A DNA stretch of 58,615 nt, the filler included, from Sphacelaria rigidula (taxonomy: Eukaryota), in NCBI GenBank assembly GCA_964200075.2. It is 3 parts of 3 records of this genome, joined end to end, with 100 filler letters (N's around TTAATTAATTAA, not from the genome) between each part and the next. Parts side by side here need not be neighbours in the genome. Positions count along the whole stretch, not along the records: positions 39,146 to 58,615 come from CAXNAA020000666.1; 2 more parts are not named here. One strand, written 5' to 3'. Below are positions 39,146-58,615 of this stretch, piece after piece (position 1 is the stretch's first letter; each line of letters begins with the position of its first letter). The notes below the pieces were generated by a model. That model was not told the DNA's origin. It did not search any database and was given only the letters and a program-made list of their open reading frames with translations. The translations under genes were made by a program, and so were the position numbers.

Positions 39146-39796
39146 CACAATCCCGGGGAGCGGTTGGTTCTCATTTCAAAATACGTTCTCATTTTTCTGG
39201 CAACCCTGTTACTTCCAGAACCAACCGCCGCATTATTCACCTGTGCGCAAGTCGGGGCTTCGATCTGAAGAAAACTGCTTGTCGATAAGACGCAGCAGTG
39301 GTTGTTGTGGGGGCAGTCACTTCTCCAAAAGTGATTTTTTGGACACGGATAATCACTTCTGATAAGACCCCGCCTGATGCCAGTCTCTGGAGAGTTTGGT
39401 AATCGCCGAGCGGGTACACACAGAGGACACAGGCGAGGAATTTCCTCTCTGTCGTTGCTTCTCTCTCTGGTGATATCGTCATCGACACCTGTGTATACCA
39501 CATTCGTTAGATACACCTAGCCACAGCTGTTCAACTGTTGCGGACATTTGGGGGGAAAGATGGCTTCACTCGGTCGCAGGTGTTTCCGCGTCTTCCCTGC
39601 AAAACAGAAATGCCACTTCAACCCCATATTTTGTGTGAACCCCATTTTCTAGGATCCACTGTTTTTTGGTGTTGTATAATAGTATGTTCAGGTCAACTGG
39701 AACACAACATGAAGCCACGAAGGCTGTCAATGGCATAGCTCGGGGGGAGGAACTGGTTAGTAAAACAGCTCTGGGCACGCAGACGCATGTAACTGT

Positions 39797-40083
39797 GTCT
39801 TCGTGAGATTGAGAATAAAAATACGATTGAGAGTGAGAAGCGGTCAATCGGTGAAGGAGTCGTTTCAGTTGCGAGATGCCCCTCCCCGAGGCCCAATATG
39901 CTCTCCGTAGTAGCTTGCCACTGAGGTCTTTGGTATCCCTGAGTAGGATATCGACGTGAAGCTGTACGCATACGCCAGTGATGGAGGCAAAGGAAAGCAC
40001 ACACGGAATGAAAGTTTAGCTAAGTTACAGCGAAATATCAAAGCCACTCTCAATCAGCGCTCTACTCTCAATCTCACGAAAAC
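39797..40083. mobile_element. Small MITE-like element with ~40-bp imperfect TIRs
   Basis: GTCTTCGTGAGATTGAGAATA...GATTGAGAGTG versus CACTCTCAATC...TACTCTCAATCTCACGAAAAC. Confidence 0.65.
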
Positions 40084-40234
40084 GTCGTTATGTGTTGTAG
40101 TACCACCATAGTTGATGTGTTACGTGTGAGTACAAAATTTTAAATCAAGTTTACTACGAATTTGACTCCTGAGGGGTTCGCGAACTGTACGTACCCCACC
40201 TGCAACAGGGCTGCGCCACCGAAGAGTCGCGCCC

Positions 40235-40650
40235 CATGAACTGACAGGTGGGAAACAACATATGTTTATATGATTCATTTTTCATGGGCAGAAGGTGGAG
40301 GACATGTACGCATGAGTCACGCTGCGTGAATGATAAGTGGGGAACATTTGGACTTGTACCACTTTGTATGGATGGGAGGTATGTCACATATATGTATGAT
40401 TCATGCCGCATGAAATGAATTTGGGAAACATGTACGCTTGATTCATTCACCTCGTACGGACGGGAGGAGGATGACATGTACGTACGATCCATGCGGCATT
40501 AACAGAAATTGGGAATTGTGTACGCTTGATACACCTCGTATGAAAGGAAGGTGGGGAACGTGTGCTCATGATTCATGCTGACTGAACGGAAATTAGGAAA
40601 CATGTACCTATGAATCACGCCATACGAAAGTACGGTAGAAAACATGTATC
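40235..40650. repeat. Degenerate ~42-bp minisatellite (GGGAAACATGTACGnATGATTCA core)
   Basis: About 10 units with recurring ACATGTAC and TGATTCA/TGAATCA at ~42-bp spacing. Confidence 0.75.
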
Positions 40651-41747
40651 TTCGACGGTGCACCGCACGAATCACGCACTGGGAAAGTGTACATTTACTT
40701 GAAGGGGTGTCGTACGAATCACGAACCCAAAATATGTATAAACTCGGTTGGTTCATCCAAATGTAGAATTTGGATAAAAGTCGAATCACGATTATATTCG
40801 TTCGAACCGTGAAAATACCGTTTGCATTTTTCAGGGTCTCGTGTTCTTTTACGCGTACTAAATTCAATATCATATACAATTTCGAGCTCAGCTCGTACTC
40901 ATGGAAACGTCTGGTTCTCATTTTCCCGCCTGTTTAGTGCTAAAATCATGGCGGCGGCAGGGAGGTCGAGTGTCTGCAGTGTGACACGTGACTACTTCGT
41001 GACTGGTGCATTCTGGATTTGAGAGCTGTGATGGATGCCCCCCTTGCACACTGTGGGTATGTTGATTAAGAACCGGCTGTGACAATGGTAGTGGACGCGG
41101 TTCATACTCCTCTTCGCTATCCTGAGTGCTGTAGCGGCACTTCACACTCGCCTGCCTTTGACCTCAGCCGTTGAATTTCAGGGGAGGTGAAATGTCCTCA
41201 AAGGCATCTTTGACGGGTGCTATTTGCCAACACCATATGCAATTTTGATCTGCGCCCGTTCCCATTTTTCAGAATGCCGTCTTATTTGGGAAAAGGAGTA
41301 TTAACTCCACACTTCGAAGACAAGAACACGGGATTCGCCAGCGAAAGGGCCCCCATCGGTGTACCGAACCCACACAACACACACAAACGATCCAAGCGCA
41401 TCGTTGCTCCAGGCCTCGTCGCGACGCAGGAGTCGGGACCTGGTACAAACTACACGCGCACACACGTCCCGTGCACACACACACGTCCCGTGCAGACACA
41501 CACGTCCCGTGAATCTAACCTCATTCCACACCCATGGCAGTCCCGTAGACCACACTTTCCACAAAGGTCGCCGAGATGCCACCATAAGTGCAAAGCAACC
41601 TAAACTCACACCACCGTCCATAAAAGGTTCTTCCAACATATCCGTCGTACCCAACGGATAACACCGTTCGCCTCCTAAATATGGCAACTTGACAGACACA
41701 ACACTGCAACAAAGGGGGAAAGAGTACCCACACCCAATTCCTCAATG

Positions 41748-41901
41748 CTAAACCCTTCGCCCGGAACCTATTCCGTTGCGGGGGTTGGGGTTTTTATTAT
41801 TACGTCGTGGGGAGGCGCCTGCGCTGACGAGAAACCGTTTAAGCTTGGCTGCCTGCTGCGCCGTCATGCCGGGGACTGCAATCTGGAACTCTTTTGCGGC
41901 G
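41748..41901 (-). CDS. FANCM: FANCM terminal exon (second HhH)
   Basis: CAG|C acceptor matches phase 2; AAKEFQIAVPGMTAQQAAKLKRFLVSAG..., stop TAG. Confidence 0.75.
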
Positions 41902-44900
41902 CTGCAATACACACACATGCACACACGCAGGCACGGACACGAGAGGATAGAAAAACGCATGTTTGTGTCAAGGCTCGAGATACGCCAGGATCGCCAGGTT
42001 AAAGCTGCGCAATATTCAGTGGGGTTGGTCGTGTATCGGTTACCGATAATATCCAAAGCAATTACGGCAGCAGCACCGACATCGATAGTTTGCCATCACA
42101 GGCGATAAAGCATGTTCGGAGTTCTGCGCCCTGACCGGGCGTTTGGACACTCGACAACCTAATTTTGCGATAAGATTGACACATTGACTGCGCCAATCGG
42201 CCCATCTAAAAAAATGGTGAGAAGACATACGGCAAAATGTTTACAGCTGGTTCGTACAGTATTGTAAGTTAGGATGATTTGTACTTATATAATATCTTCG
42301 ATACCTGTCGATACAAAACACTACAAATCAAGGGACACCGTCCGTTCGTGCACAATAGGGAATAACAGGGACATCCAGCACCCAATGGGCGAAGGCGGGA
42401 AGGTGAGTGAGCATGTGTGATGGAATACACGGCATGAGAGGCGGGAGGAACTGGACTGATGAAACCCCGCCGTCGCAAAATCCCATGGTCAACGAGTGCG
42501 CTATACTTGTTTGCTGAATCGGTGCGACTTCATTGGCAATAAACGTCATGCGAAGATTGACGAAATAAAAGATAGGCCATGTAGGCTGGAACCCCGGTTG
42601 TGCCACGTACGCTATGCCCGGTCAAGGACACGTAACAGGAGTTACTTGATTGATGGATTGATTCACATATCACGCAAAATTGAATCAAGGACGCGTCAAG
42701 GCCTGCCCCGGAATAAAAATCTACCATGACTCACTGTAGTGTTCACGCACCTCATTTGCTCAAATAATCGTACAGTGAAGAACAACATAAACACGCTGCT
42801 CCCTTGATATGACGCTGGGGTTGTCGAACAGATCCCGCTCCCGTCGCCACCTTCCACCTTGCTGCATCAATCCCTACAGGAAATATAGCCCGCGCAACCT
42901 TCTCTATACTTATATAGAAGGAGGGAACCTCACCTACTTATGACCTCCTTGACCGACCGTCCTCGAAACGCCTGCAGCAGGAACAACCCTCCGGGGTACG
43001 ACAGTGTTGGCGCCCTCAGCAACAATGACAGGAACTTCATCTGGGCAGCCGTGAGAGAAGGCCCTGTGACCTGTTATTGTCCAACGGAAACACAGCGCGT
43101 AAAACAAAAAAGATGGGTAAAGCGGGGTGAAGAACGATAATGCCGGGTAGTACGCACTGATGAGGAGAGGCACGCTGCTTCACCCCGCCAGGTATGCCGT
43201 GCTTCATTATATTACGAATTAGAAAGAACAAAAAGTTAAAAAAAAAATTCGACAAAATACTAGAGGTATTCTCAAGCACTACAGGCTAGCCTTAAATGCC
43301 CGAAAAGCGCCGCACCGCAAGCAAATGGGGATAGGAACACCCCGGAATAATTTGCTCTCAAGAGCCCTCTGGACAATTTTGACTCACCACAATCGATTAC
43401 TCCAAGACCCCCCCCCCCCGCCCCTTTGTACTCCCCAATCCCTCACCTCGGAAGGCAGCCCCACACCCGCTCGCTCCTCCTCAACCACCAGCTGCACCAC
43501 CTTGTCAGCGGTATCTTTCCACCCCCGGCTCGCGACGACGCTAACCCCGTGGAGAGCCTCGACCCTATCAATTGCAGCCTGCTCCGCCTCATCCCCCTGG
43601 CTGTCACCGCCGCCACCGCCGCCGCCGCCCCTATCGCTTCTTCCCCCGCTGCCACCGGAGTGACGATGGCTCTGGTCGTCCTCCAGGCCTTCCACGATCA
43701 CCACCACGCGGGCGTACCGGGACAGGTTGGCCTGGAGGAGCGCTACGAGGGGCGGGACTTTTTCAGGCGATTCAATCCCGCCAGCATTAGAGAACGGGGC
43801 GGTTGCCGCAGCAACGCCGACGACACCTTGCTGGTGCTGTCGCTGCGACTGCGATTGCGATTGCGATTGTGAATACGACGATGATGAACCTGGCAGCGGC
43901 AGTGGGGAACAAGGTGACAGCCCAGCTTGGCTCCGTTTTCTTCGCCCTGACGCCTGAGAGACGAACTGCCGCCGGCTGCGGACGCAAACCGCGCATTGTG
44001 CGCCCACCACGAGGTCAACATCTCGCAGCAAGGGTGGCAATGACGATACTCCCGTCGACATCGCGCCTCCCGTCCGACCCGCGATTGAGCCCGTGGCGGT
44101 GCCGCCGCCCAGTGGGCAGGCGTGTATCGTCAAACCTGGACGCGAGCGCAGTTCCCTTGCCAGCGCTTCCAAGGTGATCGCCCTCGGCGCAGACAGGGGC
44201 ACGGTAGCCGAAATTGTTGCTGTTTTTGTCGGCGGCAGAGGAGAAGCAGACGAGGAAGTGGCCACGGCCTTGGCCGAGGTGGTCGCTGCCGATGATTTGA
44301 CCGCCGGCAGTGGGGGTGACGGTGGTCTTGGTGCGGAGTGACTGTGATGTGCTGATGATGATGATCTTGATGAAGCTACAGAAGGGCCCAATGGCGGTGG
44401 TGGTCGTCGTCGCTGCTCGGTGGTGGTCGTCGCTGGCCTCAATAAACCCAATCTGACGGTACCACCCGCTTCTTTAGCATATCTCCCAATTGATCTCTCG
44501 GGAGCCGCCGATGATGCACCCTCACTGTCTTCTCCGTCTGAATCATCATCATCATCATCGTCGTCGTCCATATCCACGCTCATACGGAATTTTCGCCGCT
44601 GCTGTTGCTGCTGGAGCAACACGGCCGTTTTGTTTTGACTGCTGCTTTCCTGCGATGGCAACGATGAACGAGGACGCGTGAGACCTGCCTTCGGCAACAA
44701 AGACCTCGCCGATGAATTCGTCCCTCGCTCGCTGCCAAGACCACCTGCACCGTTGCCTCGACCAATACCCGTCCCACCACCACCAAGGGGTTCGTTCTTA
44801 GTTGGAGCAGCGCAATCCTGCGGCTGCGTTAGCCCGACGCTAGAGCCTTGGCTGAGGCCTCCTCCTCCTACTTTCCCACCGCCACCACCGCCAACTTTAG

Positions 44901-47900
44901 CAGCCTGTCTTTGTCTAAGACGTTCGAGAGCCCTGGCCCTATTTTCCTGCATCTTTCGCCGCTGCTGTTCCGTCAAGGACGATGCTCCGGAGCTGTTGCT
45001 GCTGGAACGAGACGAGGAACTGGAGCCCATGTCCTTATTCTCGAGAACCTTCTCACACCGCGAACCACCACTTGCCGCGGCGATACCACCAGCGGCGACG
45101 GGTTCACTGCGCGCCACAGACTGGAGCACAGTTCGCTGCGAAGCTTGCAGGGGTGGTTCACCGTGCCCCTTACCGCTCGTTTCACCTTTCCCAAAAGCGG
45201 TCCCCCCTGCGCTTATGCCGCCTTCCGTCACATCATTACCTTCTGGGCGGTGATTTTCCTTGCCCTCGTGCCGGCCATCATCCTCGACACCGGCGGCTGC
45301 CACGAGCTTCGGTCTCTTCAACAAAGGAACAGCAACAGGGTCGGGATCGGCACGCGCTGCCGCCGCCTTCGCGGGTGCTGTGCGACGGAGGCCAGGAGAC
45401 AACGGAGGAGACCCTGGCGGGTACGCCTGCCGCATTACCTGAGAGTATGACTGGTCTTCTGCCGCTTCCTCCTCATCAGAGTACATCGGCTCGGCGTTCG
45501 CTTGATCTTCCGCCGTAAGCCGCCCGCACCCCGACAACTCAGCAGACGGCATACCACCACCGCACGATTCGCTTCCGTCCTCCCCCGGGGAGGTGAACTG
45601 GGAGGATTCCGCCTTCGCCAATCTCCTGCTTGCTCTCTGTGGCGTGGGCATCTCCTGAGTCGGGGTTTGGCTGTTGTCGACATACATATCGGAATCGCAC
45701 GCGTTTTCGATATCGAGGGGGTCGCCTCCGTCCCGCGCGTGGCTCATGACGGCATTGATAAACGCGCAGCGCCCTCCGCCGCGGATTGCTCTGCCGCCGC
45801 GGCCATCCCGCGTGCCACCACGATTGCGGTTCCGGGATGATGTCGAGGCACCGCCAGGACGAACAGGAGTTTGAGACATCGCCATCAGTTGGAGGTACAT
45901 GCCCTGCGAGTATGAACGGGAAATGTGGATAGCTGAATGGGTGAGGACGTTGAGCACGCAGCGTATGGTTGATGCAGTTTTCACCGCAATAGAGTAAAGT
46001 ACAGAAGCCCAAGTAATGAGAAAATATACGTTTAGATGATGGGGACTAACCACAGCATACACACACACAGGAGCAAACCAGGATGCAAGAATGCTGATGA
46101 CCCACAAACGCTGTATAACGCACGAGAAGGCGTGTTTTGTTCTCTTACTTCTCTCACGCGGCGCCGCGGGTAACAAAAAACGACAGCAAAACGATAAAAA
46201 AAGCGTTTCCCTGCACGTAACCCTACTTGCGCATCTACAACCAGCTACATACCTTCTCGTCTTCATCGTCACCCAACCTCCTCTTTTTCTTCTTTTTCGT
46301 GCCGTTACCGTTGCCCCCGCCCTTGCCTCGCCTAGAGCCAATGCTCGCATCTTCTTCGCCGCTGTCGCTGTCGCCTTGGTCGCACGGGGTGTCTTGCAGG
46401 CTTGACGGCGTGTCGGCACCCTCCTCCTGAGACGAGGAGGTCTCATATGACAAGGGTCCATCATCAACGAAGCTATCCTGGCTGTTTTTCATTCCACGGG
46501 AAGACGAAAGGGCAAAGAAACCGGATTAGCAGGTCCGTAGCGAGGTTCGGGGACAGCAGACTTCACGTGAGGTCGGCGTCAACTTTCCACCCCCTTGAAA
46601 CATACTTGATTTTAGTGTGAGCCTTCAGTCCCAAGGGGGGGTGATCGTTTTCACGATACAATGGGAATAACTGTTGCGGCTGCTACCGGCGCGGTCGGAA
46701 TCCGAAACGAGAAAACTCCGAAAGTCAGGATATACGACATCTACAAGGTTGTGTTGTGTAGGGTAGGGGTACGTTCGGCAGGATATGAGATTCCTTGCAG
46801 AACATACATGACTATCGTGTACCAGTATGAGAGTCTTACAGAAGTTACAGAGTCTGTCGGATAGAGTTTGGGAGGCTTACAGAATTCACAAGACTTGTCA
46901 GGTAGGGTATGGTGGTTGCACAGAAAAACGAACCCGTAACCGGGTATTTTTACGACGGTATACCCGCACCCCGGGTAATGGTAAACATTGTGTTTAGAAC
47001 TTACAGAACTATCGGGGTACCGGTATGGAAGTATTACAGATCTCACAGAATTGTCGGGTAGGGGTATGAAAGTCTCAACAGAACTGACAGATCTGTCGGT
47101 ACTCGTATGAAAGTCCTACAGAAGTCACACAACGGTCGCGTACGGGTAATACCCAGGAAAATACCCTGGTATACAAAAAACCGTACGCTGCCGAACAAAA
47201 CCTTGCACACAACCATCAACGTCGATGACCTGCCCCTTGCAACTTATTCCCCCTAGTGGCACAGATGAACCGGTCCCACTCAAGCCCCAACTGAAGTCTG
47301 TGGGTGATCCATCCTGACGGTTTGCCTTGCTGCTCACGTTTCGTGTTTCCACTCAAGGGTACCCTGTAACCCGTCAGTGTACGAAGTTTACATATGTTTT
47401 TGTGGGGGTGGTGTTGAGTGAACGAAGGGGATTTGATTGATGGGGGTTTGGTGTTCAAGTTTTGATTATCAGATTGTGTCGGGACCAAACCTCCATTGTT
47501 GGGACGGAAACTAAATCCATACTCACAGGGGTATGAACGTCCAAAAAAACGTAGAGAACTGTCGGGTATCGGTATGAAAGTCTCACAGAGGTTGCAGAAC
47601 TTGCCGGGTAGGGTATGGAGATTGCACAGAAAACCGTACCCGCAACCGGGTATTTCTAAAGGGTATACCCGTGTCGCCGGCAAGGGTATGGGAGGCCCAC
47701 GGCACTCACAGAACTCACAGAACTCACGTGTAGGGGCATGAAAGTCTTCGAGAAATTACAGAACTGTCGGGTATGGGTATGGAAGCCTCACAAGAAATCA
47801 CAGAACTGTCGGGTGCGGATGATACCCGGGGAAATACCCCGGGTATACACAAAACCGTACCCTTCAGAACATAATCTTGGACATTTATATCCCCGCACTG

Positions 47901-50900
47901 CATGTTTTTCATACTGTACGTCTCTTCACCAATCCGACAGCTCAGTAACCCATCCCTGAACTTCATGTCGAAAAGACAAGTTGCGAAACTCCCGTGTTAC
48001 GGGGAACTGACGCTGGCGCAATATATTCCAGAGACGCGCAGAAATGGGTGCCATAAACTTCCCCTTTTTACCAGTCCTCCCCTCTCGTCCTGTTTGCAGT
48101 GACGCATTACACTGACTCTATCGCCGCGAACAAAAGAGAAAAAAAACAGTAATAAACGCCAACATTTCCTTCTTATGTCACTTTTCAACTGCTCCCCGTC
48201 CTCGGGATAAGTCCGTGGTGTCAAGGGACCAACCCATCTCTCCCCCGGTACACGCCTTGCATTTGGGTCTCGCAGACTGGACCAACATATCTGCACCGCG
48301 TCAGCTCTTGCCAAACAAACTCAGTCGAACAAACCAACTTCTGCTCCTCACATCCTCGCGTGTTCAATGACGTACATTAGATCATTGGAAGGGGAAACGC
48401 CAAATATATCTAGCGGGAATCGAACTCACGTTTTTCCCACCCTAATGGTGTCAGTTGTAACATTATACCACCGGGGCGCGTTAAGAGTTGTCGTAGGTAT
48501 GTACGGCTACATGTAATCACCTACCTTCGGTGCTTCGGGGTCCCGAGTACGCGGCGAATCGCGCGCGAAGCGACTCGAGCGTCACAAGGGACCGCTAATA
48601 GCACTGAATAATGACCGAATGTACACGCACAACACGCCACACACGAGCTCTTTTTACCTGTCATAGAAGTCGTCCAAGTCTGCCTCGTCATCGTCGGAAA
48701 TATCTTCGTCCACTTCTGCCTCGTGGTCTATATATCTGAAGTGCCACACAAAACACACGTGCACACAGACACACACACACATACGGAGTGGTCAGGCGCA
48801 GGGAGCCGGCGAGCCTTTTTCTTCGAGCGAGCACAGGAACAGAAGATGAGTTCGTGTTATCAGAATATGGCATAAACAACACCAAACAAACACACACCCA
48901 CACATCCATGCACGCATACAACGCGCACATTTTTACCCCAAGAGTATGCCTCGTTCCCCCCGCCAATAACACATACACATGATTCTGACGGCGATCCATC
49001 TACAGTCTAGGAAGGAAGGCTATGAGAAGCTTTCCCCCTCACGGACGATAATTACGACATGATACCATGGTCGTCGTAGACTTTGACTACGTGAGACCGA
49101 TGTCGGACACACGATCCACAGCGAACTAGGCACCGTCTCGCCTGGGGCGGATCGACTGGCCCATACCATGCCGGTCGGTGCCTTCTTTGCCAGATCCCCC
49201 AGCACACCTCAGTGCAACGGTAAACGCAACCCGCCCCACAAGCACCTCATCACGGACTAGGCGGCTCGGATGCAAACGGCAAAAGAAAGTCGATGGGAAG
49301 ACATGGCAGCAAGCCAGTCGCTCATGACAGCAACATGTTCATGGGGAAGTGGCAAAATCGCGACCACCACGATCGCGGCAAACACCAATACCGCCACCAT
49401 GACCATCACTAAACAATAGCAGCAGCGGCAGTAGCAGCAGCGACAGCAAAGGCAATGGCCGACAGAAAGAAACCCACCGGCGATAGGAAGACTTGTCGAA
49501 TTCGCATCTCCGGCCCTTGCTAGCGCCCCCGCCTTTCTCCCGCCCCATGAACGCGCGCTCTCCAGCTTTCGGCTCACTCGGCTGCTTTTTCTGGCTCCGT
49601 TCCCTCGACAAACCCTTCAAATTATCGTTACACCCATCAATCACAGAGTAAAACCATACGTTGACCATATACATATACAAATACTACATGTCATCACATA
49701 GATTCATAAAAAAATACGAAAGCATTCTCGACACGATAGAAACAAACTTACCAGAGAATGCCATTGCACGAAGTCCTGAAAACCACCCACCGAAAGCACG
49801 CTTGCACCAAAATCCACCCACAAAACCATGATTGACTTGTGGGAGGTGTCGATGCGTCGAGACTGCGCAAAGTCCTCGTGTTGCCCATGATGAATGCCAG
49901 TGCGACCAAGAACAGTCTGTTCAACTACCAAATGACAGCAACTACTCCGTTTATACCGTCAAAATATCACCCACGATGGAGGGCAGTGCTCATCTGTCTA
50001 ACCCTATCCCACGGGCCATACACACAGCCGGTGAGACGATGAGAGTAGGGAGGAAGGGAAGAATTACACAATATATTATTCCACGGGTCGTACGTTTTGA
50101 CACGTGAGCCTCAGCAAAACGCAATCAGCTGTCCATTTCGTTCAACACTCACCTTTGAGCGGCTGCCAAGCGAGCGCTTCTTGCCGGATAGTGCGCCTTC
50201 CTCCACACCAGACTTAGGATGAAGCGTGACGACGCCCGCGTTAGTGGCACGCATTCCGAAAACGAGGGTTCGGGTTGTGAGTCAGTGAGCCTGGGCACAG
50301 GTCACGGGTGCAGTCAAACATATGACGACAATCAACTGCTTCCTCACACAGGGATACCCTTCTCCCCTCACCTTCTTGAGGCGTCGGCGCTTGACGTCTT
50401 TCCTCACATCGTCCACCGGCGAGATCGCCTGCGACAAGGTCACGAGACCGTCATCGCAGCCCTCGCCCACTCCTTCAACGTCAACAGGGCTGCCATACAT
50501 GCCGCCCTCTCCCCGCCCTCCCCCTCCTCGAAGAAACTTCGTACCCGAGGTAGCCGGCGGTGCCATATCAAACACCTTTAGTGGTGTGCCTCTCTCGTCA
50601 CCTGTGTCCCCGCCCGCACCGCCTTTTCTTCCCCCCTTCCTAGCGGCCGCAACCTTCGCCGCCGCAGCCACGGGGCTCGAGGTTCCACCCACAGCTCCGT
50701 CGTTTTCGCTCTTACTGTGCTCGGTTCCGTCCTCGTCGCCTTCGCTATCCGATAAATTCATCGTGTGCTTTCGAAGTCGTCGCCGCCGCCCGGCTGCCGC
50801 CGCCGCTGATATAACCACCGGCGACTCCGCCTGACTCTGCTGCGAGCAATGGAACAACCCGCTCGACTCTGTCTGCGTCGGTATCAGTTTCCGCGATCTG

Positions 50901-53900
50901 CCCGCCTCGTCTTTGGCATCGGCGCACACAGTCTCACCAGTATTTCTACATTCGTTTTTTGCCCCTAGCATGCTATCCGCAATGCATGCTGCACTCCCTC
51001 CCGTGCTATCTGTTTCTCCCTCGATAGGCCTTGGTCCACCGGTATTGTTCATTTGTCCCCCCGTTACTCGCGACTCGTCGAGGCGACACATATCACCACC
51101 ACGTGGTGCGGCGTGCGCGTGGTGACCCTGTCTTTGATCCTCGCGTTGTCTCTCCCGCCGGGAGTGAGTCCGGCAAAACAGCTCGAACACGCCGTCGTTC
51201 TCCCGCAGAAAAAAGCCCGATCGCAACGCGCAAAACGGGTGACACGCCTCCAAGCAGACGGGTGCCGCGCACTGCACCACCGCTCCGCCGCGCTCGTGGC
51301 AAAGCGAGCACGTGAGCGTCTCGCGTGTCGGGTCGAGCTCAGAGAGCGGTCCGGGTCGCACCGTATCCGGGTCAGAGGTTAGCTCCGGGGTCCACCACAC
51401 GCATACCACGTGCGCCCATCGCCCGCACCGCGAACGCTTGAGAACACCCCCCGAGCGCCTACAGAGAGCGCAGGAAGTCGAGGATGCAGCAGATGGTGCT
51501 TTTTTACGGGCATCTGCCACTGCCGATGATGTGGACCCACAACGCTGGGTCCCCTTGGTTGCGGTCGGGCGCGAAGGTGACGATAATCCGCACGATTGTG
51601 AGTTCGAGTGACCAGAAGAGGAGGAGCACGGCTCACATAACCATGGGCCCTCTGGAATCTCGGTAACACCGTAACAGTCAGCGTGAACGGCCGTCTCGCA
51701 GCCTTCTCCGTCGCAGAGCAGTATAGGGTCATCCTCCTTGGGGCTGGCATCGCCGCAGACCCCGCAGAATACATCGTCGTCTTCTCTCTCTTGGTCTGGG
51801 GTGGGTCGGCCGCGATCGCCACCGCCAGAACCTCCACCGCTGCTTTGGCTGCTGTTTTCTACACCACCAGCTTGACTACCGCCGCCTCCGCCCCGGCCAC
51901 CACCACCGCCGTTTCCTATTTCGCCACCTCCCCCTCGCGTCTGAATGAATTCTCGGATTCCTCGCTGCGCGTGACTCCTCACACCGCTCTCTCGTTCACT
52001 GGCAGTCGATCGATTGCCGATGCTAGGATCTGCCACCACTACCTCACCCTCAAGCTGGTCGCCAGGTCGGTAAGACTCGAGCGTGCCGTCACCAGACATG
52101 TTAGCAGAAACATCTTGTGTGATCCCGTGCGCAGCCTCCGCATCGTCGCTAGCAGGGTTCCTTTCGTCAGCAGTCCGACTGCTTTTGAAGGCCTCGGGGT
52201 TGTTGTCACACACCGGTACACCCCCGCTGTCAACCAGTAACGTCTCTTCTTGTGTTCCGGCGACGTCTGCATCGCACGGCGTATCTCCTTGGGCATCCTC
52301 GCCCCACTCGTCGTCTTCGTCGTGCTGGGTCTCAGTAAGTTCCTCCACATGGCGTTGCCCCGGGGAGGCAGTCGTGCTTGACGCCGCAGAGTCTTTATTC
52401 GGAGAACGCTTGCTGTCAGCACAAGAGGGATCCGAAGTTGGTGTGGGGACATGCCTCTGAGATTCGCTGTCAATGAGAACATCGCGCATGGCGGCGGCAG
52501 CGCGATCGCCGCCTGCAGCGGCGGTTGTTGCCGACTGTACTGCCACATCATCAAGGGTCCCAGCAGATGTAGTCAGAGACAAACGCCGGGGAGGAGGCGA
52601 CGCTTCCGGGATGTGGGGGACGGACAACACTGGTGGAGGAGGTAGGACCAGATCTTTGGTAGGCGTAGCTGGCGGGGGCAAGCGTGCCACGGGAGCAGCG
52701 GACAGCACCGGAGGAGGAGGTATCGCCAAACCTATTGTGGATGTAGTCGGCGGACGCGCCGACGAAGTTTCCGAAGTGGAAACTTTAGAACGACTGGATG
52801 GCATTGAACGAGGCGCCGGGGTGACGAGCGGTGACAGCCCGCCATCAAAACGGCTGATCCCCCCGGTGCTTCCACCATTCAAGACATCGACGTCGGCAGA
52901 GCTAGTGCCTTGGTCGCGGACACCACCGGTGCTGTCCAGTCCCTCTTGGCCTGCCTCGAACTGATGCAACGACGGAAAGAGCCCCGCAAAGCTGTCGTTA
53001 TCTTGGCTTTCCTGCGTCGCGGGCGAGGGGCACGGTTCCGTTAAATCCTCTGTTGTTGTGGACCTGCCGCTTCCTGGGGCTGGCGATTCGTCCGCACCTG
53101 CCGCACCGACAACAGGCCGGCGGCCTTGTACTGACTCTGGCGTATGATGTTGCATACTCCTCTGTAGAGGTTCCGAGCTGAACCGTTTCCCTTCACATTT
53201 TGGTGTAGCCAGCCTTGGCTGGCGGGGAGCGGAGGCGACAGGTGCGGTTGCCGGCCCGCCAACGACGCCAGCACACAGGTTCCGGACCCCGGGAGCCGTC
53301 GCCTCCGCTGAAGCCGTTGTAGAGGCCGGTGCAACCGCCGGCGCTTCGAAGGTGACTTCCCTGTCCCCGTTCGTTTTGCTCCCATCTCTAGATGCCGACT
53401 TTTTCAATTTCGACTCTCTGCGGTGGCCGATCAAGGATTCTTCATCCTCATCCTCCTCGCTGCCACCACCCTTTCCTGGCCCGCGGTGGCCACTGTCCAC
53501 ATTTCCTACTTGCCTCTCACTGACTTTGTCGCGAGCGGCGTCTCGGTCGATGCCTCCTGCCCCCGCGGCAGCGGCGGGTTTGTCCTTCGCGACTGTGACT
53601 GGCCTTGGGGTTTTGCAGGCGCGGCACTTCAATCTGCTGGCACCGTACTCGTTGCCGCAACCAACGCACATCCACGTTCCCTTGGTTTCTTCAGGCGCCG
53701 CCGGCGACGGGGATCTAACGCCCACGCCATCACTTCCGCCCGCCGACGACGACAGTACGCGTGCTAGTGTGGAGAGACTCTTCGGAGCTATGCCACGCCC
53801 TACAGCAGCACCTTTCGATCCGTCACTAGCCGATCCGTGCACCCCTGAATCTGCCCTGCCACCGTTGCTATTGCTGTTCTCGGCGTTTTTGTTGGCGACG

Positions 53901-56900
53901 CCTCTCGGCTGTCGAGCTTCATTGTCAGCGGCGCGACCTGGGGGTCTCGGTTGGCCGCACATGGAACATCTCTTGCTCCCCGCTTTCATGCTGCACCCGC
54001 ATCCGCACTGCCATCGGCCACGGCCGCCGGTTCGCTTGCCAGTTGCAGGCTTCATCGGGTGCCCCTCCGAGCGATTACTGCAACACCCAATGTTGCCGAT
54101 ACCGCAGCTCTCCTTGGTGCTCGTACTGCTGCCGGTGCACAAAATGGGGCTCTCCGGACTCCCGCCCCGCGACTGGAGGTTGTCGCAATTCATGGAAGGC
54201 GAGCTCGATACGGAACGGATACCTGACGTCGATCGGCAAGCTGAAGAGCTCTTGTCTTTACCGCCGTCGACAGACCGGTCCAGTGGCTCAAGTGGCGGCG
54301 GCGGGGAATCTCGGCTGTCGCAAGAAACAGAATGGTTCGTCGAGGCGTCAACGAGGCCGACATCGATGTCGACATTGGCGGGAGCAGCAGCGACAGTGAA
54401 CATTTCACCGCACATGGGACAGGTCTTGCGATCCATTTTTACAACGCAACCGCACCTGCACCGCCATCGTATACCCTTGTTCGTTCTTGAGGCCGCAGGC
54501 GATGCCGGTGTTGGCTGCTTCGCTGTTGCCGCAGTCATGCTACCGGGGTTCTGGGATGACATAGGGTTGGCGACACGATGATTAGCAGTAGGGCCGGTCG
54601 AACTGCCAGAGATGGCGGCGCAGCGGTCGCGATGATGGCGGCGGCGGCGGCGGCCGCGGCTGCATTCCGGGTCCGACTGCGTCTTCTGATCATCATCCCC
54701 ACCGCCATGGTCATGTGCAAGCATCGGGTGACCCCGCTCGTCGTCAATCTGCGTTGGCCTGTCTTCATCGTCGTCCTGTGGCAACTGCTGTCCTTTGTCA
54801 GTGGTAGGTGGGACAGCAGCCGCTGAAACCACAGATCGCTCCCCTCTCCCCGTACTAATCATCGTTTGAGAGTCTCCCGCGGCAAACAACGCCGTCGTAG
54901 ACGTGTCTAGCGTATCGCCAACGTCAGTATCCCTCAATGTACCATCGTCCCCACCCACGTCGCCACGCTCGTGCTGTCGAATTCCTCGGCCCTCCTCCCT
55001 TTCATCCTTAGATATTGTTGGAGTCGCGGGCATCTTACTCCTCTTTTTGGCGGGTCCATCCCCGTCTTTGACTGTCGACGCAGCAGTAGCAGGATTCTCA
55101 CTATCTTCCTTCGCCACCTTCCCTTCCCGTAACTCCCCCTGCTTCACCTCCGTTTTTTGCACCTGGTTCGATTTACTCTTCCTTTTTCGGGCGTTTGTAC
55201 GAACCTGGAACACCGCTTCTTCGTCGGAAGACTCCGACGCTAACTCCACCGCGATAGACGACCTCCCACCTGCACTACTTCCGCCTCTCCCGCCAGTACT
55301 CTCTTGTTTCGAGCTCAACACCGACGGTAGGGGTGGCGACTTGCTCTTCGGTGCTCGAATTCCAGCTTGAAGTCCCGTCGCTGCCGCTGACTGTTTACGC
55401 GTGCCACGACTGTCGTGCTCTACGGCCGCAATGCTAGACCCGTCCATGATCGCGTCATCTCCCAGAACCTCGGTTTGGTCGGCGTTGGTGCTGCCGTCGC
55501 TCACGGCGCCGCCGTTGACGACAGGCCACCTGCTGTTCTTGCTCACGCTGTCCTCGGCTTGGGTGTGCCAGTTGTCCATCACAAGTTGCATATCGCTCGG
55601 GTCGTACAGCAGCTCCCACTCCTAGGGGATACGAGTAGCGATGAAAAGAACACGAGCATCAGGTGACCAGCGAAACAAGAAGGCTGAAGAACAGGCTCAT
55701 GCATGCTCTCCAGTTTCATGTTTTCGGTAAGGGGATGGAAGAGGGGGTGTACTCATGATGATACATGCCACAGTCTTAAGACCATTGACCTCGCATCCCT
55801 ACAAAGCCGGAACGGAGCACGCCGGGTTTTCGCCGGGCCAGGCTTGCAATCAACGGTAGGCAGGGCAGGGGTTGTCTTTGCGCTATGTCACAGCCAGTCG
55901 TCCCATATGGCTTACAAATGGCATGATACATAGGTCAAGTATGAAAGACGATGGCTCTGAGCAATACATATAATGATAATATATATAGCGAAGACAAGTG
56001 AATAAAAAGAAAAAGAAAAAAAGCAAAGCACGATCGACAGCAAGCAGCATTGATACTGGCGCAGACGACGCCAAAAAAAGAGGGGGGGGGGGGCGACAAA
56101 GACGAGGACTGCCAGGAAGAAGAAACAAACTGCCGACGACAAAATATATCCAAAGACATGTAGTACTGCTTCCGCCTGTGTATCTACACTACTACTTGTT
56201 TCCGTTTTTCGCTCGACACAAACCTGATGCTGAACAAAATCTCTCAGTCCACAGAGCACTTTAGAACGAGACGAGCGTGAAACCTGTTCGGGAACAAAGA
56301 AAACGAGACGAGTAAGGGAAAGGGCACACGCCACCACAGCGACAAATGGGGGAACGGGGACGACGGGGGTCAAGTATAATACGAGTGAGGAAGGGGCGAC
56401 GGGTGGCGGGAGGATTGATTGTCCTGGAAACAAATAACGAATGACGAACGACCTGATTATGTGTGATGACACTGCTTAATTTGGCATGATATGACAACTC
56501 CGTGTTGACTTGTGGATCGTCAAATGGTCCTGCATGCGGTGGCGAGACGCCAAAAAGCTGAGAGTCGAAACGGACGCCGTAAACCATTGGCTCCAAACCA
56601 CTGCATTGCCGTCACCATTACAATCGCCTCTACTTGCACACGAAATACTGATGGGGGGGGGGGGGTTCTGAGGAAGTGCAAGCACTGCAACCATGCGCTT
56701 ACTGTTAGACGGAGACGGGATATACGGTGCGAGGTGCATTGGCGAAAGAAAAGGGAAACACACACACATCCGTATGAATTTTCCCCTACTGTGATGCTAC
56801 CCCATGCCAAACCCAAGGGTAAGTATTGCCTGCTTCGACAAACCTCGGAACCCATTATATTGCACGTTAGAAGGGACAACTTCGAGGCGCCGTTACCTTG

Positions 56901-57835
56901 CTACAGTGGTACGTACGATGGTACGCCCCAACTTGTTCACAAACGTTTGTAGGTCCGAGACACTGGAAACAGCCTGAGCTTTGGGCGGGTCGCTTTGGGG
57001 ATTTTTTCAATCTGGGAAAAAAAACACACACACACATATACACATGTTTCACACCTTTCGGGCAACTTCTTACGGTTGGCTTGTTTGTTTGGCTACAACT
57101 TTTCAGTTTTGGAACAGAAAAAAAAAAACGTAAGAAACGGTTCAAGAGAGTATTCTGCGCCCTGTGCCCGAAAAACTGCTCCACGGAAACAAAGCTAAGG
57201 CGAGACCATTCCCAGGAGCAGGTCGACGCAGACACAGAGCACCTGACAGCTCTCCAAAAATGGCAGCGGTGCCCGCGAAACCCCGTTGCAAAAATGAGCA
57301 GCCTCCTCTCATGGATCATCAACGATTGGACTGGATTCGGAATTGTTGGGCTGTGGTGCGCTGTTCCAAAGCAAGACCGATTTCCGTTAGTGGCGGCCGT
57401 TCGTTGATGTAGAGAGGGGCCCTGCGCGAGATAAACGTGACCTTCTTGAGACCTTTTTTGTTCGTTTGCCGTCTGTAAACGTGCAACAAAAAGCAGTGCC
57501 TGTTTCTTGCACTAACGCCCTCTCCCGTCCAGAGCACACAACATTCAAACACAAGCCACGCAGCACCCCCACCGTCCACTCACACTCCCCGTCGCCCAAA
57601 AACTCCTCTGATGCCTCCACCCCAGGGCAGGGTCCGGGATGTACGGCTTCGTCCCCGGCTCCCCCATATACGCCTCTTCTAAGGTGGCCTTCTGAGCCGC
57701 GGTCAACCGCCAATCCTCGTCACCAACACCGCCGCTGTTGTTGCCGCTCCCGCCGGCGCCGCGACGTCTCCCGCCGGCCGAGCTACCAGCGCTCTTTTTC
57801 GCCGCTGGTTTGCGTTTCGATTGATGCCCCCCGAC
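41748..57835 (-). CDS. FANCM: FANCM-like DNA translocase, 5'-partial, 10 exons: join(57835-57584,56283-56224,55621-50372,50212-50153,49614-49478,48735-48658,46481-46253,45903-43447,43070-42934,41901-41748)
   Basis: GT-AG introns with consistent phases. In FANCM order: MHF-binding-like motif (DWRLTAAQKATLEEAY...WRHQRSFWATGS/VSRSSRSKVLCGLRDFVQ), long SQ/TQ-rich disordered region, MM3-like motif (YIDHEAEVDEDISDDDE...SQDSFVDD...GMYLQLM), ERCC4-like domain (LRSRPGLTIHACPLG...DLVVGAQCAVCVRS...RYARVVVIVE) and HhH pair (LLRAPTLSYPGGLFLLQAF...VPGMTAQQAAKLKRFL), ending at TAG 41750-41748. The helicase exons are not in the window. Confidence 0.85.
42934..43070 (-). CDS. FANCM: FANCM exon (first HhH)
   Basis: CAG|GTC acceptor, AG|GTGAGG donor; VTGPSLTAAQMKFLSLLLRAPTLSYPGGLFLLQAFRGRSVKEVIS. 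Confidence 0.8.
43447..45903 (-). CDS. FANCM: FANCM 2457-nt exon (RPA-binding-type helix, ERCC4-like domain)
   Basis: CAG|GGC acceptor, GAG|GTGAGG donor, 819 codons within ORF 43384..46467. Confidence 0.88.
46253..46481 (-). CDS. FANCM: FANCM exon
   Basis: CAG|C acceptor (phase 2), AAG|GTATGT donor; SQDSFVDDGPLSY...KKKKKRRLGDDEDEK. Confidence 0.8.
46744..47879 (-). mobile_element. Second composite arm-core-arm copy, in a FANCM intron
   Basis: Same arms (47879-~47530, 47205-46744) and homologous core (GAGTGGAAACACGAAAC(A/G)TGAGCAGCA...ATGGATCA). Confidence 0.75.
48165..48480 (-). mobile_element. tRNA-derived SINE-like element (head and body)
   Basis: Minus-strand head CGCGCCCCGGTGGTATAATG (A-box-like) ... 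GAGTTCGATTCCC (B box), then body GAGCTGACGCGGTGC...GCGAGACCCAAATGCAAGGCGTGTACCGG...CACGGACTTATCCCGAGGA. Confidence 0.75.
48658..48735 (-). CDS. FANCM: FANCM exon (MM3-like acidic motif)
   Basis: CAG|A acceptor, AG|GTAAAA donor; YIDHEAEVDEDISDDDEADLDDFYD. Confidence 0.8.
49478..49614 (-). CDS. FANCM: FANCM exon
   Basis: AAG|GGT acceptor, CG|GTGGGT donor (phase 2, which the next exon requires); GLSRERSQKK...FDKSSYR. Confidence 0.65.
50153..50212 (-). CDS. FANCM: FANCM 60-nt exon
   Basis: AAG|TCT acceptor, AAG|GTGAGT donor; SGVEEGALSGKKRSLGSRSK. Confidence 0.65.
50372..55621 (-). CDS. FANCM: FANCM giant 5250-nt exon: 3 C4 zinc ribbons, PHD finger, zf-HC5HC2H extended PHD
   Basis: TAG|GAG acceptor, AAG|GTGAGG donor; 1750 open codons overlapping ORF 50282..55591; canonical PHD C4HC3 (FCGVC...LLCDGEGC...HADC...WLCEPC). 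Confidence 0.92.
56224..56283 (-). CDS. FANCM: FANCM 60-nt exon (second half of MHF-binding-like motif)
   Basis: CAG|GTT acceptor, CAG|GTTTGT donor; VSRSSRSKVLCGLRDFVQHQ resembles the VxHSxRxxxxxxLxxxxE segment of FANCM. Confidence 0.7.
57584..57835 (-). CDS. FANCM: FANCM exon (first half of MHF-binding-like region)
   Basis: CAG|GTC acceptor, AGT|GTGAGT donor, 252 nt; contains DEDWRLTAAQKATLEEAYM. Confidence 0.8.
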
Positions 57836-58289
57836 CTGTTTGTTGCGTGAACCGATCAGAATATGGCAGTAAGGGTGGTGGGTGTACCATGCGGGGGCGA
57901 GCGCAGGTGAGGTTACAGTGTCAATCATGAGATGCATTTGCTGTCCAGGGTCGAACACGCGAGGAAATCGGAGAAGGGGACGGGGGTGGGGGGTACTCAT
58001 GATCTTGCATGCCGTAGTCATATGATCGTTGAGGGGGGGGATGATGGAGACACAGATGCATAGGTCAGGTGTCAGGTACGAAAGAACTGAGAGAGACACC
58101 GCAAAAAAGTGTTGGATAGGAGAAGGAATGGAATCAAGAAACAAAAAGCACGTGCTCGTATCACACGAACAATGCTTTTGATGAGCTGAGAGAGTATTTT
58201 GTCCTTCTTTTGTTTGGACGATGGGCATGGTACTTGAAACAACTCTACGTGAAGGTCTGACTGCGTCTACCAGCTTAATACAATAACCC

Positions 58290-58405
58290 CTCTCCCTTTG
58301 GGGCGCTCCATCTCGGAAGGGATGCGTGATCAATGGTCAAATGATGGAGGCAAGCAACAAATGAGTACCCCGCTCCTCCCCCTCCCCCAAACCCACCCCC
58401 TAGAC
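58290..58405 (-). repeat. Dispersed repeat shared (inverted) with 30-135
   Basis: Reverse complement of the motif above. Confidence 0.8.
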
Positions 58406-58615
58406 ACCTCCATTTCGGGTACTGCAACAGAGAGATATAGGCTACTCTTTGCATCATCGACCCTTAATATCCTTCACATCAAACCCCCCACGCTAAGTAT
58501 TCGGTCACGTTCAAAATATTTTCTCTTCACCCCTCCCCCCCCCCCCCCCCGCCCGGGTTCGGTTTCGTTTTGCTCGTTTGTTTACCGCCCTCCCACTCTT
58601 TCGTGTTTCCTTTTT

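Follow-up and report, generated by a model that had tools for sequence, protein, structure and literature searches.

Along the minus strand, from position 57835 to 41197, the window (the whole stretch of Sphacelaria rigidula DNA analysed here, 58,615 nt with filler) carries the last ten exons of a gene of at least 2937 codons (Table 1). In spliced contigs, a 5250-nt exon and nine further GT-AG exons form one open frame of 2937 codons; after refinement of the borders the acceptors are AG in 10/10 and the donors GT in 9/9 cases, and none of the 9 junctions interrupts the frame. The first visible exon holds a low-complexity stretch followed by a conserved block (DEDWRLTAAQKATLEEAYMGEPGTKPYIPDP..GWRHQRSF), and in the last one the stop codon (41748-41750) is followed by about 550 nt of 3' UTR.

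Table 1. Features of the gene in the window, in the direction of transcription
Feature	Position	Strand	Evidence
First visible exon, 252 nt	57584..57835	-	Spliced contigs X1 rec1, X8 rec17, X2 rec7; AG/GT borders
60-nt micro-exon VSRSSRSKVLCGLRDFVQHQ	56224..56283	-	Fills 59-nt gap in contig coordinates; in frame
5250-nt exon, 1750 codons: three zinc ribbons, PZP, conserved short motifs	50372..55621	-	Open frame; AG/GT borders
Zinc ribbon 1 (ZnR1, WRCRCGC..CPMCG) WRCRCGCVVKMDRKTCPMCGE	54404..54466	-	Pfam Zn_Ribbon_1 E 0.053, below cut-off
Zinc ribbon 2 (ZnR2, WQCGCGC..CSMCG) WQCGCGCSMKAGSKRCSMCGQ	53951..54013	-	Conserved ligands
Zinc ribbon 3 (ZnR3, WMCVGCGNEY..CRACK), RanBP2-like spacing WMCVGCGNEYGASRLKCRACK	53612..53674	-	Pfam Zn_ribbon_RanBP E 0.0059
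Conserved short motif LFPSLHQFEA	52952..52981	-	F882, P883, L885, H886, F888 invariant in 14 orthologues
PHD finger 1 of PZP	51626..51766	-	Pfam PHD E 1e-6, PHD_2 8.3e-10; aligns to BRPF1 PHD1 in 6U04
Zinc knuckle and extended PHD (zf-HC5HC2H_2)	51161..51475	-	Pfam E 3e-20; zf-HC5HC2H 1e-15
Short motifs TPLKVFDMAPP and L(M/V)TLSQA(V/I)SPV..KRRRL	50378..50587	-	Invariant columns T1679-P1689, T1728-L1748
60-nt micro-exon	50153..50212	-	Fills 61-nt gap in contig coordinates
137-nt exon	49478..49614	-	Contig piece; AG/GT borders
78-nt exon with acidic motif YIDHEAEVDEDISDDDEADLDDFYD	48658..48735	-	Fills 78-nt gap in contig coordinates
229-nt exon, acidic and serine-rich, KKKKKRR stretch	46253..46481	-	Contig piece; AG/GT borders
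2457-nt exon: RPA32C-binding motif and ERCC4-like pseudonuclease	43447..45903	-	X1, X2, X8 contig piece; in frame
RPA32C-binding motif, SMARCAL1/TIPIN type, predicted SLTEQQRRKMQENRARALERLRQRQAAK	44896..44979	-	Profile search against PDB
ERCC4-like pseudonuclease domain, long low-complexity inserts	43447..44205	-	Fold match (AlphaFold2, Foldseek, VIA-align)
137-nt exon, first half of (HhH)2 region (..LRAPTLSYPGGLFLLQAFRGRSVKEV..)	42934..43070	-	Contig piece
Last exon, second half of (HhH)2 (..VPGMTAQQAAKLKRFL..)	41197..41901	-	Contig pieces 41197-41901 (X1), 41163-41901 (X2)

The spliced contigs stem from three runs (X1, X2 and X8) of two studies, and are Logan assemblies, not single molecules, of runs guessed to be RNA. 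The main ones measure 11,220 nt (X1 rec1), 10,959 nt (X8 rec17) and 6,008 nt (X2 rec3), the last ending within the big exon at 52542. The pieces 41197-41901, 43445-45902, 46252-46481 and 50372-55620 abut in contig coordinates, the big exon being a single piece in X1 and X8; a piece 57582-57838 occurs in X1 and X8, and 42934-43068 and 49478-49613 are listed for X1 only. Contigs of run X5, a run whose kind is not on record, pass unbroken through the introns. The upstream micro-exon is the sole 60-nt AG..GT candidate starting with GT and is conserved in an Ectocarpus model (P0045) and in an MMETSP open frame (P0018), while the downstream one is the only one of five 60-nt AG..GT candidates, read by eye, that is open in phase 0. 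The 78-nt exon is part of the NCBI model P0003 of Sphacelaria and is conserved in the Ectocarpus models P0011 and P0045.

An earlier note on this DNA had described the 5250-nt exon as uninterrupted and in frame with the ERCC4/HhH exons, and so it is: both are found in the same molecule in the X1, X2 and X8 contigs, and the junctions named there, 56224/55621 and 50372/50212, are exact and used by spliced contigs of all three runs. That the PHD exon should be a separate chromatin gene, nested or adjacent, which was joined to its neighbours by read-through or mis-assembly, is highly improbable. Such a join would fit the assembled nature of the contigs and the start of models P0003 and P0011, whose first residue is in both cases a Met within ribbon 2; yet these models, too, connect the PHD exon with the ERCC4/HhH exons, an identical exon chain with exact GT-AG borders recurs in the three runs of two studies, and the 2937-codon frame is open throughout. 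Moreover, the parts follow each other in the same order in the Ectocarpus models and in the MMETSP transcript protein P0048 of a distant alga, the contiguous protein of which can be aligned over two splice junctions of the window.

At the C-terminus lies an ERCC4-like domain of the FANCM type that is nuclease-dead. Its core is predicted by AlphaFold2 with a pLDDT of 74-93, and Foldseek places Hef first (E 4.2e-5, TM 0.78 on the target) and FANCM at E 5.4e-5 to 2.3e-4. In VIA-align, human FANCM chains take the top three places (Z 17.2, 17.1 and 16.4; 22-23% identity over 133-135 aligned residues), above archaeal Aeropyrum XPF (15.4), Hef (14.6) and Zip2 (13.9). Human FANCM, the best structural match, is also the only sequence-profile match in the PDB: a two-sequence profile of the C-terminus gave three matches at E <= 10, all of them human FANCM at marginal E values (0.067-0.076), over some 100 residues that take in the (HhH)2 of 9HJO, 4M6W and 4BXO, where the exon 42934..43070 aligns. 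No FANCM chain came up when the ERCC4 region was searched against the PDB as a single sequence, and Pfam ERCC4 remains below its cut-off (17-19 bits vs 24), matching at all in just 2 of the 12 sequences compared (that of the window and 11 matches). At the expected ERK..D strand-helix the alga reads QCAVCVRSRRQF, with zero acidic residues, and 'QCAVCVR' is invariant in 12/12 sequences. A (HhH)2 region likely follows the pseudonuclease.

FANCM is a branch-point DNA translocase of the Hef family, and the earlier note proposed linking the exons described here to upstream DEAH-helicase exons. No helicase exon is present anywhere in the window, but a helicase was found in Ectocarpus sp. 12, in a computed partial NCBI model (P0045, 2352 aa) with ResIII/DEAD (E 3e-22) and Helicase_C (E 9.5e-13) domains. 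This helicase matches human FANCM (9EL5_A) with E 9.1e-119, Hef (1WP9) with 1.2e-62 and RIG-I, the next family, with 1.7e-16. Spliced residues 39-119 of the window, which cover the first visible exon, the micro-exon and the beginning of the big one, share 58% identity with P0045 residues 531-611 (E 2e-28), and in P0045 this shared block comes directly after the FANCM helicase. The identity of the helicase as that of FANCM is shown in the Ectocarpus orthologue only; the link between helicase and PZP is unseen in Sphacelaria itself, as the helicase exons would lie beyond the right-hand end of the window. The contigs do extend 5' of the first visible exon, by 1852 nt (X1) and 1876 nt (X8), which leaves room for some 500-600 residues.

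One could propose instead a lineage-specific Hef/FANCM paralogue, or a helicase-less scaffold of PZP and pseudonuclease, with the canonical FANCM elsewhere in the genome. The missing helicase in the window would suit this, as would two MMETSP open frames, P0018 and P0048, which begin past the helicase position, exactly at the block that follows it. I consider it unlikely, as P0045 has its helicase directly before the shared block, the C-terminus is nearest to FANCM by fold and by sequence, and the roughly 1.85 kb further 5' in the Sphacelaria contigs would be unusually long for a 5' UTR. Still, a helicase-less form may exist, given where P0018 and P0048 begin. Very probably, then, the gene is the Sphacelaria orthologue of FANCM with a built-in PZP, three C4 ribbons and an RPA32C motif, its helicase exons being situated off the window. 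The central claim of the earlier note, PHD/ePHD and three C4 ribbons in one polypeptide with FANCM, holds on the strength of the contigs, the C-terminus and the Ectocarpus helicase.

The PHD and the zf-HC5HC2H extended PHD lie where they had been noted, except that the PHD ends at 51766 rather than 51780. The Pfam matches to PHD, PHD_2, zf-HC5HC2H and zf-HC5HC2H_2 in the open frame all exceed the curated cut-offs, and the module matches the BRPF1 PZP crystal 6U04 with E 3.9e-28 over the whole sequence (second stretch E 1.3e-17), followed by the PZPs of JADE3, JADE1, AF10, NTO1 and PHF14. PHD plus ePHD is present in 14/14 brown-algal orthologues, and the zinc ligands of both are invariant in an alignment with a mean column identity of 28%, a conservation which is far beyond chance. 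The ligands of PHD1, zinc knuckle and ePHD of BRPF1, JADE1/3, AF10, NTO1 and PHF14 are all present in the alga too; the host of the algal PZP differs from these proteins in being a DNA-repair translocase instead of one component of an acetyltransferase or methyltransferase complex. Among the Foldseek matches of the predicted PZP model, the top 16 are without exception PZP structures. The model itself is mediocre (pLDDT 59.6; TM 0.35-0.45 and rmsd about 9 Å against PZP crystals), and owing to this poor superposition and to an insert of some 45 residues, absent from BRPF1, that separates PHD1 from the knuckle, it does not demonstrate an integrated PZP packing.

The three C4 ribbons are situated exactly where the earlier note had put them. 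In the 14 brown-algal orthologues, W650, C652, C655, C666 and C669 of ribbon 3 are invariant, as are C552 and C555 of ribbon 2, and at least 90% conservation is seen for W537, C539, C541 and C543 of ribbon 2 and for C390, C401 and C404 of ribbon 1. Ribbon 3 shares the W-x-C-x2-C-x10-C-x2-C spacing of RanBP2-type zinc fingers (ZRANB2, Nup153; PF00641), to which the Ectocarpus orthologue has weak matches (ZRANB2 E 0.021, Nup153 E 0.25), whereas ribbons 1 and 2 differ from this type by an extra Cys (C-x-C-x-C). Zn_ribbon_RanBP is matched by 6/14 orthologues at E <= 0.1 (best 6.6e-5), and in the MMETSP homologue one finger passes the Pfam cut-off (29.0 bits vs 27). The RanBP2/NZF assignment made earlier is not supported for the window's own ribbons, however, the best of which, ribbon 3, reaches 16.3 bits against that cut-off of 27, and the proposal that the modules embedded in FANCM read ubiquitin found no support. 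Zinc-finger binding is predicted, and the ligand would be nucleic acid or ubiquitin.

It is possible, if rather doubtful, that the architecture is real but that PZP and ribbons act as zinc scaffolds for binding DNA or RNA or for docking proteins, for instance an alga-specific partner. The insert, the poorly superposing halves of the PZP model and the ribbon scores all lean that way. Against this, in 14 orthologues whose linkers diverge freely, PHD1 and ePHD keep all their zinc ligands invariant, along with many residues on their surface, and the module is along its full length 24-31% identical to PZP structures with bound H3; binding of both DNA and the H3 tail is described for solved PZP domains (PMC4705663, PMC8082262, PMC8421203).

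When its profile is built from 12 sequences (that of the window and 11 matches), the putative RPA32C-binding motif retrieves the SMARCAL1 peptide 4MQV_B (E 1.1e-4) and TIPIN (E 0.3); searched by itself, the window's sequence matches 4MQV_B best (E 0.087). According to an excerpt of PMC10950228, 4MQV is the SMARCAL1:RPA32C complex. The algal LTEQQRRKMQENRARALERL resembles the SMARCAL1 motif, with 13/20 letters identical, and both hosts are fork-remodelling translocases; the motif is N-terminal in SMARCAL1, an SNF2-family annealing helicase, whereas in the alga it lies about 230 residues before a FANCM-family pseudonuclease.

In the alga as in human FANCM, the helicase is followed by a long linker with docking motifs and then by pseudonuclease and (HhH)2, though the algal protein is much longer, reaching at least 2937 residues even when its helicase is not counted. 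Between helicase and FANCM-type C-terminus it has four added features: the ribbons, the PZP, the RPA32C motif and conserved short linear motifs. Human FANCM, yeast Mph1 and Arabidopsis FANCM are not known to have PHD/ePHD (PZP) or zinc ribbon modules, nor is human FANCM known to have an RPA32C-type motif. The human structures used here are those of the helicase (9EL5) and of the C-terminus with FAAP24 (4BXO, 4M6W, 9HJO). The linker of human FANCM carries MHF-binding (MM1) and RMI-binding (MM2) motifs; Pfam and PDB searches detected neither in the algal linker, and the exons previously called MHF-binding-like have no Pfam or PDB match, so this label reflects their position only. Archaeal Hef (1J24 nuclease, 1WP9 helicase) has the same two-ended design of helicase and ERCC4 domain/(HhH)2; it is not known to have a long linker or reader modules, and its nuclease is active, unlike the algal domain with no acidic residue in the ERK..D segment. 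The architecture is new for FANCM, occurs in brown algae as well as in one MMETSP alga, and I found no paper describing it.

Built-in readers would tether the motor to its substrates. Contacts of the PZP with DNA and the unmodified H3 tail would keep the translocase on nucleosomes. At stalled forks, the RPA32C motif would recruit it to single-stranded DNA coated with RPA, as happens with SMARCAL1, and branched DNA would be bound by the pseudonuclease/(HhH)2, which probably forms a heterodimer with a protein like FAAP24. Binding of histone, of RPA and through the zinc fingers by the algal FANCM is what its parts suggest.

The conserved short motifs of the big exon, LFPSLHQFEA and the pair at its 3' end, have no match in the PDB. 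The second motif of the pair, L(M/V)TLSQA(V/I)SPV..KRRRL, is probably a nuclear localisation signal.

The frame from 50282 to 55621 on the minus strand is open for 1779 codons, and the way in which it is joined to its neighbours can be read from public sequencing data. Eight public runs contain the stretch, none of which is on record as RNA (the kind given for X1 to X4 is a guess), and four of them, X1, X2, X5 and X8, were examined. In X1, X2 and X8, pieces of the window lie in abutting contig coordinates within single contigs (see the table of features), with gaps of 78, 61 and 59 nt in contig coordinates left between pieces, while the contigs of X5, a run of unrecorded kind, pass unbroken through the intervening sequence. 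I moved the exon borders by 1-3 bases, within the ambiguity of the alignments, and placed three micro-exons; the refined borders have AG at 10 of 10 acceptors and GT at 9 of 9 donors, and the spliced frame is open for 2937 codons up to a stop at 41748-41750. The junctions 56224/55621 and 50372/50212, which had been proposed from the sequence alone, are exactly those in the spliced contigs.

The annotated proteins agree in part with this structure. A homology search gives P0003, an NCBI protein of Sphacelaria rigidula called 'unnamed protein product', as 100% identical, and both in P0003 and in the Ectocarpus model P0011 the PHD exon is likewise joined to the C-terminal exons. These two models start at an internal methionine within zinc ribbon 2, and parts of two exons are missing from them; P0003 lacks one micro-exon, some of the big exon and the ERCC4 domain's first half. 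Public models of the locus (41197-57835, minus strand) are split and all unnamed, with the longer Ectocarpus model P0045 partial at both ends. The full protein probably comprises some 3,500 residues.

Features of the gene and the contigs that span it
Feature	Position	Strand	Remark
X1 record 1 (11,220 nt)	41197-41901, 42934-43068, 43445-45902, 46252-46481, 49478-49613, 50372-55620, 57582-57838		contig pieces
X8 record 17 (10,959 nt)			spliced contig, listed with most of the pieces of X1 record 1
X2 record 3 (6,008 nt)			spliced contig, listed with most of the pieces of X1 record 1; end at 52542, inside the big exon
Micro-exon	56224-56283	-	
Micro-exon	50153-50212	-	
Micro-exon	48658-48735	-	
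EWELLYDPxDMQL	55583-55621	-	invariant, 14 orthologues
Zinc ribbon 1	54404-54466	-	
Zinc ribbon 2	53951-54013	-	
Zinc ribbon 3	53612-53674	-	
LFPSLHxFEA	52952-52981	-	invariant, 14 orthologues
PHD finger	51626-51766	-	
ePHD	51161-51475	-	
TPLKVFDMAPP	50555-50587	-	invariant, 14 orthologues
LMTLSQAVSPV..KRRRL	50378-50446	-	invariant, 14 orthologues
Predicted RPA32C-binding motif	44896-44979	-	in the pseudonuclease exon
ERCC4-like pseudonuclease	43447-44205	-	

A tblastn search with the helicase of P0045 finds no helicase exon in the window, and the contigs run past exon 57584-57835 by 1852 nt (X1) and 1876 nt (X8). P0045 itself (CAM9839407.1, Ectocarpus, 2352 aa, partial) is a longer NCBI model within the cluster of the Ectocarpus protein, and its N-terminus matches ResIII/DEAD (E 3e-22 and 7e-19) and Helicase_C (9.5e-13) in Pfam. 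Against the PDB it finds human FANCM (9EL5_A, E 9.1e-119) and the Hef helicase (1WP9, 1.2e-62), the next family being RIG-I at 1.7e-16. At about residue 499 this helicase leads straight into ..QVGGHQKK..EDEWRLSAAQKATLLEAY.., a post-helicase block that is 58% identical (E 2e-28) to the spliced residues 39-119 of the window, and downstream of it follow three ribbons and then a PZP module (PHD1, zinc knuckle and ePHD) that is 56% identical to that of the window (E 8e-67). As P0045 leads from the helicase through the shared block to the ribbons and the PZP, and as the C-terminus is of the FANCM type, the best reading is that the gene is a FANCM orthologue, with the helicase join observed in the Ectocarpus model P0045 only.

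The conserved block occupies a position after the helicase equivalent to that of the MHF-binding region of FANCM, and this position is the sole basis of the label 'MHF-binding-like' in the earlier note, a label for which Pfam and the PDB gave no support. Three segments had no match in either database: exon 57584-57835, the beginning of the big exon, and the contiguous homologous N-terminus of P0018, the shorter isoform of a homologue from another alga, where the Pfam family FANCM-MHF_bd in particular gave nothing. For the 84 residues of exon 57584-57835, there was no PDB match, no Pfam match at E<=10, no homologue among proteins of 148-2000 aa and no usable Atlas match.

At the C-terminus, Pfam ERCC4 stays below its threshold (17-19 bits vs 24) and is matched in just 2 of 12 sequences (that of the window and 11 relatives). 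Searched as a single sequence against the PDB, the region gave low-complexity matches only and no FANCM chain, and 1.84 billion representatives gave 13 matches, all close relatives, without a distant FANCM. The best 11 of these 13 relatives were aligned with the sequence of the window for structure prediction. The resulting AlphaFold2 model has a mean pLDDT of 61, with 74-93 in the core strands and helices. Foldseek ranked the Hef nuclease first (4.2e-5), then human FANCM (5.4e-5 to 2.3e-4), Zip2 (1e-3), XPF, FAAP24 and EME1. With VIA-align, the top three were human FANCM chains (9HJO_A, Z 17.2; 4BXO_A, Z 17.1; 4M6W_A, Z 16.4), aligned at an rmsd of 2.5-2.9 A over 133-135 residues with 22-23% identity (for Z 17.2: 2.9 A, 135 residues, 22%), followed by Aeropyrum XPF (15.4), Hef (14.6), human XPF (14.0), Zip2 (13.9), MUS81 (13.2), EME1 (12.5) and FAAP24 (10.8). 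An Atlas search of the region returned SPO16/SCRE, ERCC4, FANCM-pseudonuclease/Rad10 and EME1 clusters, all with scores below 0.9 that serve as leads only. As judged from the model, the C-terminus carries an ERCC4-fold domain of the FANCM/Hef type.

The catalytic motif of an active domain of this kind is GDXnERKX3D. The segment where the ERK..D strand and helix are expected reads GAQCAVCVRSRRQFVSQ; whichever register is taken (I aligned it by eye), neither Asp nor Glu occurs in it, and its QCAVCVR core does not vary among the 12 sequences. Because this segment is devoid of acidic residues, the domain is a pseudonuclease, as in vertebrate FANCM. Pfam HhH has no match in P0003 or P0011. A two-sequence profile (Sphacelaria and Ectocarpus) of the last ~140 residues gave three PDB matches at E<=10, all of them human FANCM (E 0.067-0.076). 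They cover some 100 residues, reaching from the last part of the pseudonuclease across the (HhH)2 of human FANCM; the (HhH)2 of the algal protein is putative.

Within the big exon, all five zinc modules (three Cys4 ribbons, PHD and ePHD) were found where the first reading of the sequence had placed them. The PHD finger (frame residues 1286-1332) matches Pfam PHD at E 1e-6 and PHD_2 at 8.3e-10, and the ePHD (residues 1383-1476) matches zf-HC5HC2H_2 at E 3e-20 (72.9 bits vs a cut-off of 27) and zf-HC5HC2H at 1e-15; all four exceed the curated Pfam cut-offs. Pfam finds PHD and ePHD in 14 of 14 orthologues. The homology search gave orthologues that are 47-86% identical over the module, one of them from Ectocarpus sp. 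12. In an alignment of 14 orthologues (mean column identity 28%), the zinc ligands of the ePHD are invariant, as are those of PHD1 (14/14), a C4HC3 set; PHD1 aligns to that of BRPF1. Zinc ligands are fixed across orthologues, whereas the linkers diverge freely; the linkers at big-exon residues 680-1280 and 1490-1750 had no meaningful match in the PDB.

The PHD-ePHD stretch alone, when compared with the PDB, finds the BRPF1 PZP crystal structure at E 3.9e-28, and then JADE3, JADE1, AF10, NTO1 and PHF14. Since the BRPF1 match falls in two stretches, an insert of about 45 residues lies between PHD1 and the zinc knuckle. The structure model of the module has a pLDDT of 59.6 and a pTM of 0.39, and all its top structural matches are PZP structures, yet at a TM of 0.35-0.45 and an rmsd of about 9 A; given so mediocre a model, the packing of both halves into one module is only putative. 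PZP domains of known structure bind nucleosomes by both the H3 tail and the DNA (PMC4705663, PMC8082262 and PMC8421203). A search for proteins above 3064 aa with this PZP gave one unrelated PHD protein, and in a metagenome scan four loci (L001-L004) matched the PZP alone, with no helicase or ERCC4 flanking it.

In the alignment of the 14 orthologues, the ligands of ribbons 2 and 3 are invariant and those of ribbon 1 at least 90% conserved. The ribbons were compared with the RanBP2 type by the gathering cut-off of PF00641 (27 bits) and the pattern W-x-C-x2-4-C-x3-N-x6-C-x2-C. Ribbon 3 of the window reaches 16.3 bits with Pfam Zn_ribbon_RanBP and is sub-threshold, and ribbons 1 and 2 have no RanBP match in Pfam. 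Six of the 14 orthologues match Zn_ribbon_RanBP at E<=0.1 (best 6.6e-5), and one finger of the MMETSP homologue exceeds the cut-off (29.0 bits vs 27). None of these results favours ubiquitin over nucleic acid as ligand. Four short motifs are likewise fixed in the 14 orthologues (see the table); they have no match in the PDB or Pfam and are candidate docking sites for partners.

About 230 residues before the pseudonuclease, outside the coordinates of the earlier note, lies the motif SLTEQQRRKMQENRARALERLRQRQ. A profile of sequences aligned over the pseudonuclease exon finds in the PDB the 26-residue SMARCAL1 peptide of 4MQV (E 1.1e-4), with TIPIN at 0.3; with the sequence of the window alone, 4MQV_B is still the top match (E 0.087). 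PMC10950228 describes 4MQV as the SMARCAL1:RPA32C complex. I regard SLTEQQRRKMQENRARALERLRQRQ as a predicted RPA32C-binding motif of the SMARCAL1/TIPIN type.

Sphacelaria is a brown alga (Phaeophyceae), and the order of parts in its protein is matched outside this group by P0048, an MMETSP transcript protein of 1770 aa from a non-brown alga. P0048 has a post-helicase block (31% identical, E 5e-5) spanning two of the splice junctions of the window, one ribbon and a PZP (33% identical, E 3e-35), followed by the acidic motif, a motif that by eye resembles the RPA type, a RanBP finger placed between that motif and the pseudonuclease, and a FANCM-like pseudonuclease/(HhH)2 (27% identical, E 6e-9). 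Its open frame starts right after the place of the helicase, which may reflect either a truncated assembly or a real form without helicase.

How FANCM reaches stalled forks and recombination intermediates within chromatin is only partly understood. Its targeting in animals relies on separate partners, the MHF histone-fold complex and FAAP24. In the lineage described here, the FANCM polypeptide itself contains a putative reader of histone tails and DNA, a predicted docking motif for RPA and additional zinc fingers, which makes it a natural experiment on the targeting of a fork-remodelling, anti-crossover motor. In the likely mode of action, the motor would be retained on chromatin via its own PZP, recruited through the RPA32C motif to single-stranded DNA coated with RPA, in the manner of SMARCAL1, and anchored on branched DNA by the pseudonuclease and the putative (HhH)2. 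I put forward as a tentative and rather doubtful proposal that in brown algae, and in one or more further algae, FANCM would have come to sense chromatin and stalled forks by itself. Its PZP would recognise the H3 tail in its unmodified form together with the DNA of nucleosomes, its SMARCAL1-type motif would dock RPA32C, and a third signal, either ubiquitin or single-stranded nucleic acid, would be picked up by its RanBP2-like fingers. The sites at which the translocase acts on forks or on crossover intermediates, remodelling the former or dissolving the latter, would then be set directly by chromatin state, as opposed to separate partners such as MHF and FAAP24 in animals. Ectocarpus is a genetically tractable brown alga.

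Among the papers listed in literature searches, I found none that describes a PHD or PZP in FANCM, a FANCM from brown algae or a FANCM with an RPA32C motif. Those that mention FANCM together with Ectocarpus or brown algae are surveys of meiosis genes in diatoms (PMC4647503 among them), and the one that pairs FANCM with RPA32C concerns SMARCAL1. The PZP-bearing architecture of FANCM is not known from lineages other than these algae.

Positions 1-41200 hold 11 open frames with 180 codons or more, of which 10 were scanned and had no Pfam match at E<=0.001. The filler stretches 19474-19573 and 39046-39145 each show a pair of 44-base N runs with 12 bases between them, in identical layout, which are masked or gap stretches. 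In the big exon at 53110-53152 (minus strand), the contigs of X1, X2 and X8 each have one loose end at 53110 with an identical 30-letter consensus; the X2 contigs break there, and the depth of the bin is about two- to four-fold above its neighbours. These ends may be a branch of the assembly graph or an alternative form. In all four runs, depth at 39146-40443, 46934-48880, 55371-56019 and 57967-58615 exceeds that of neighbouring unique sequence by factors of tens to thousands (in X5, for example, 745,091 vs ~65), with many joints and loose ends; these four regions are dispersed repeats, three of them within introns of the FANCM gene.
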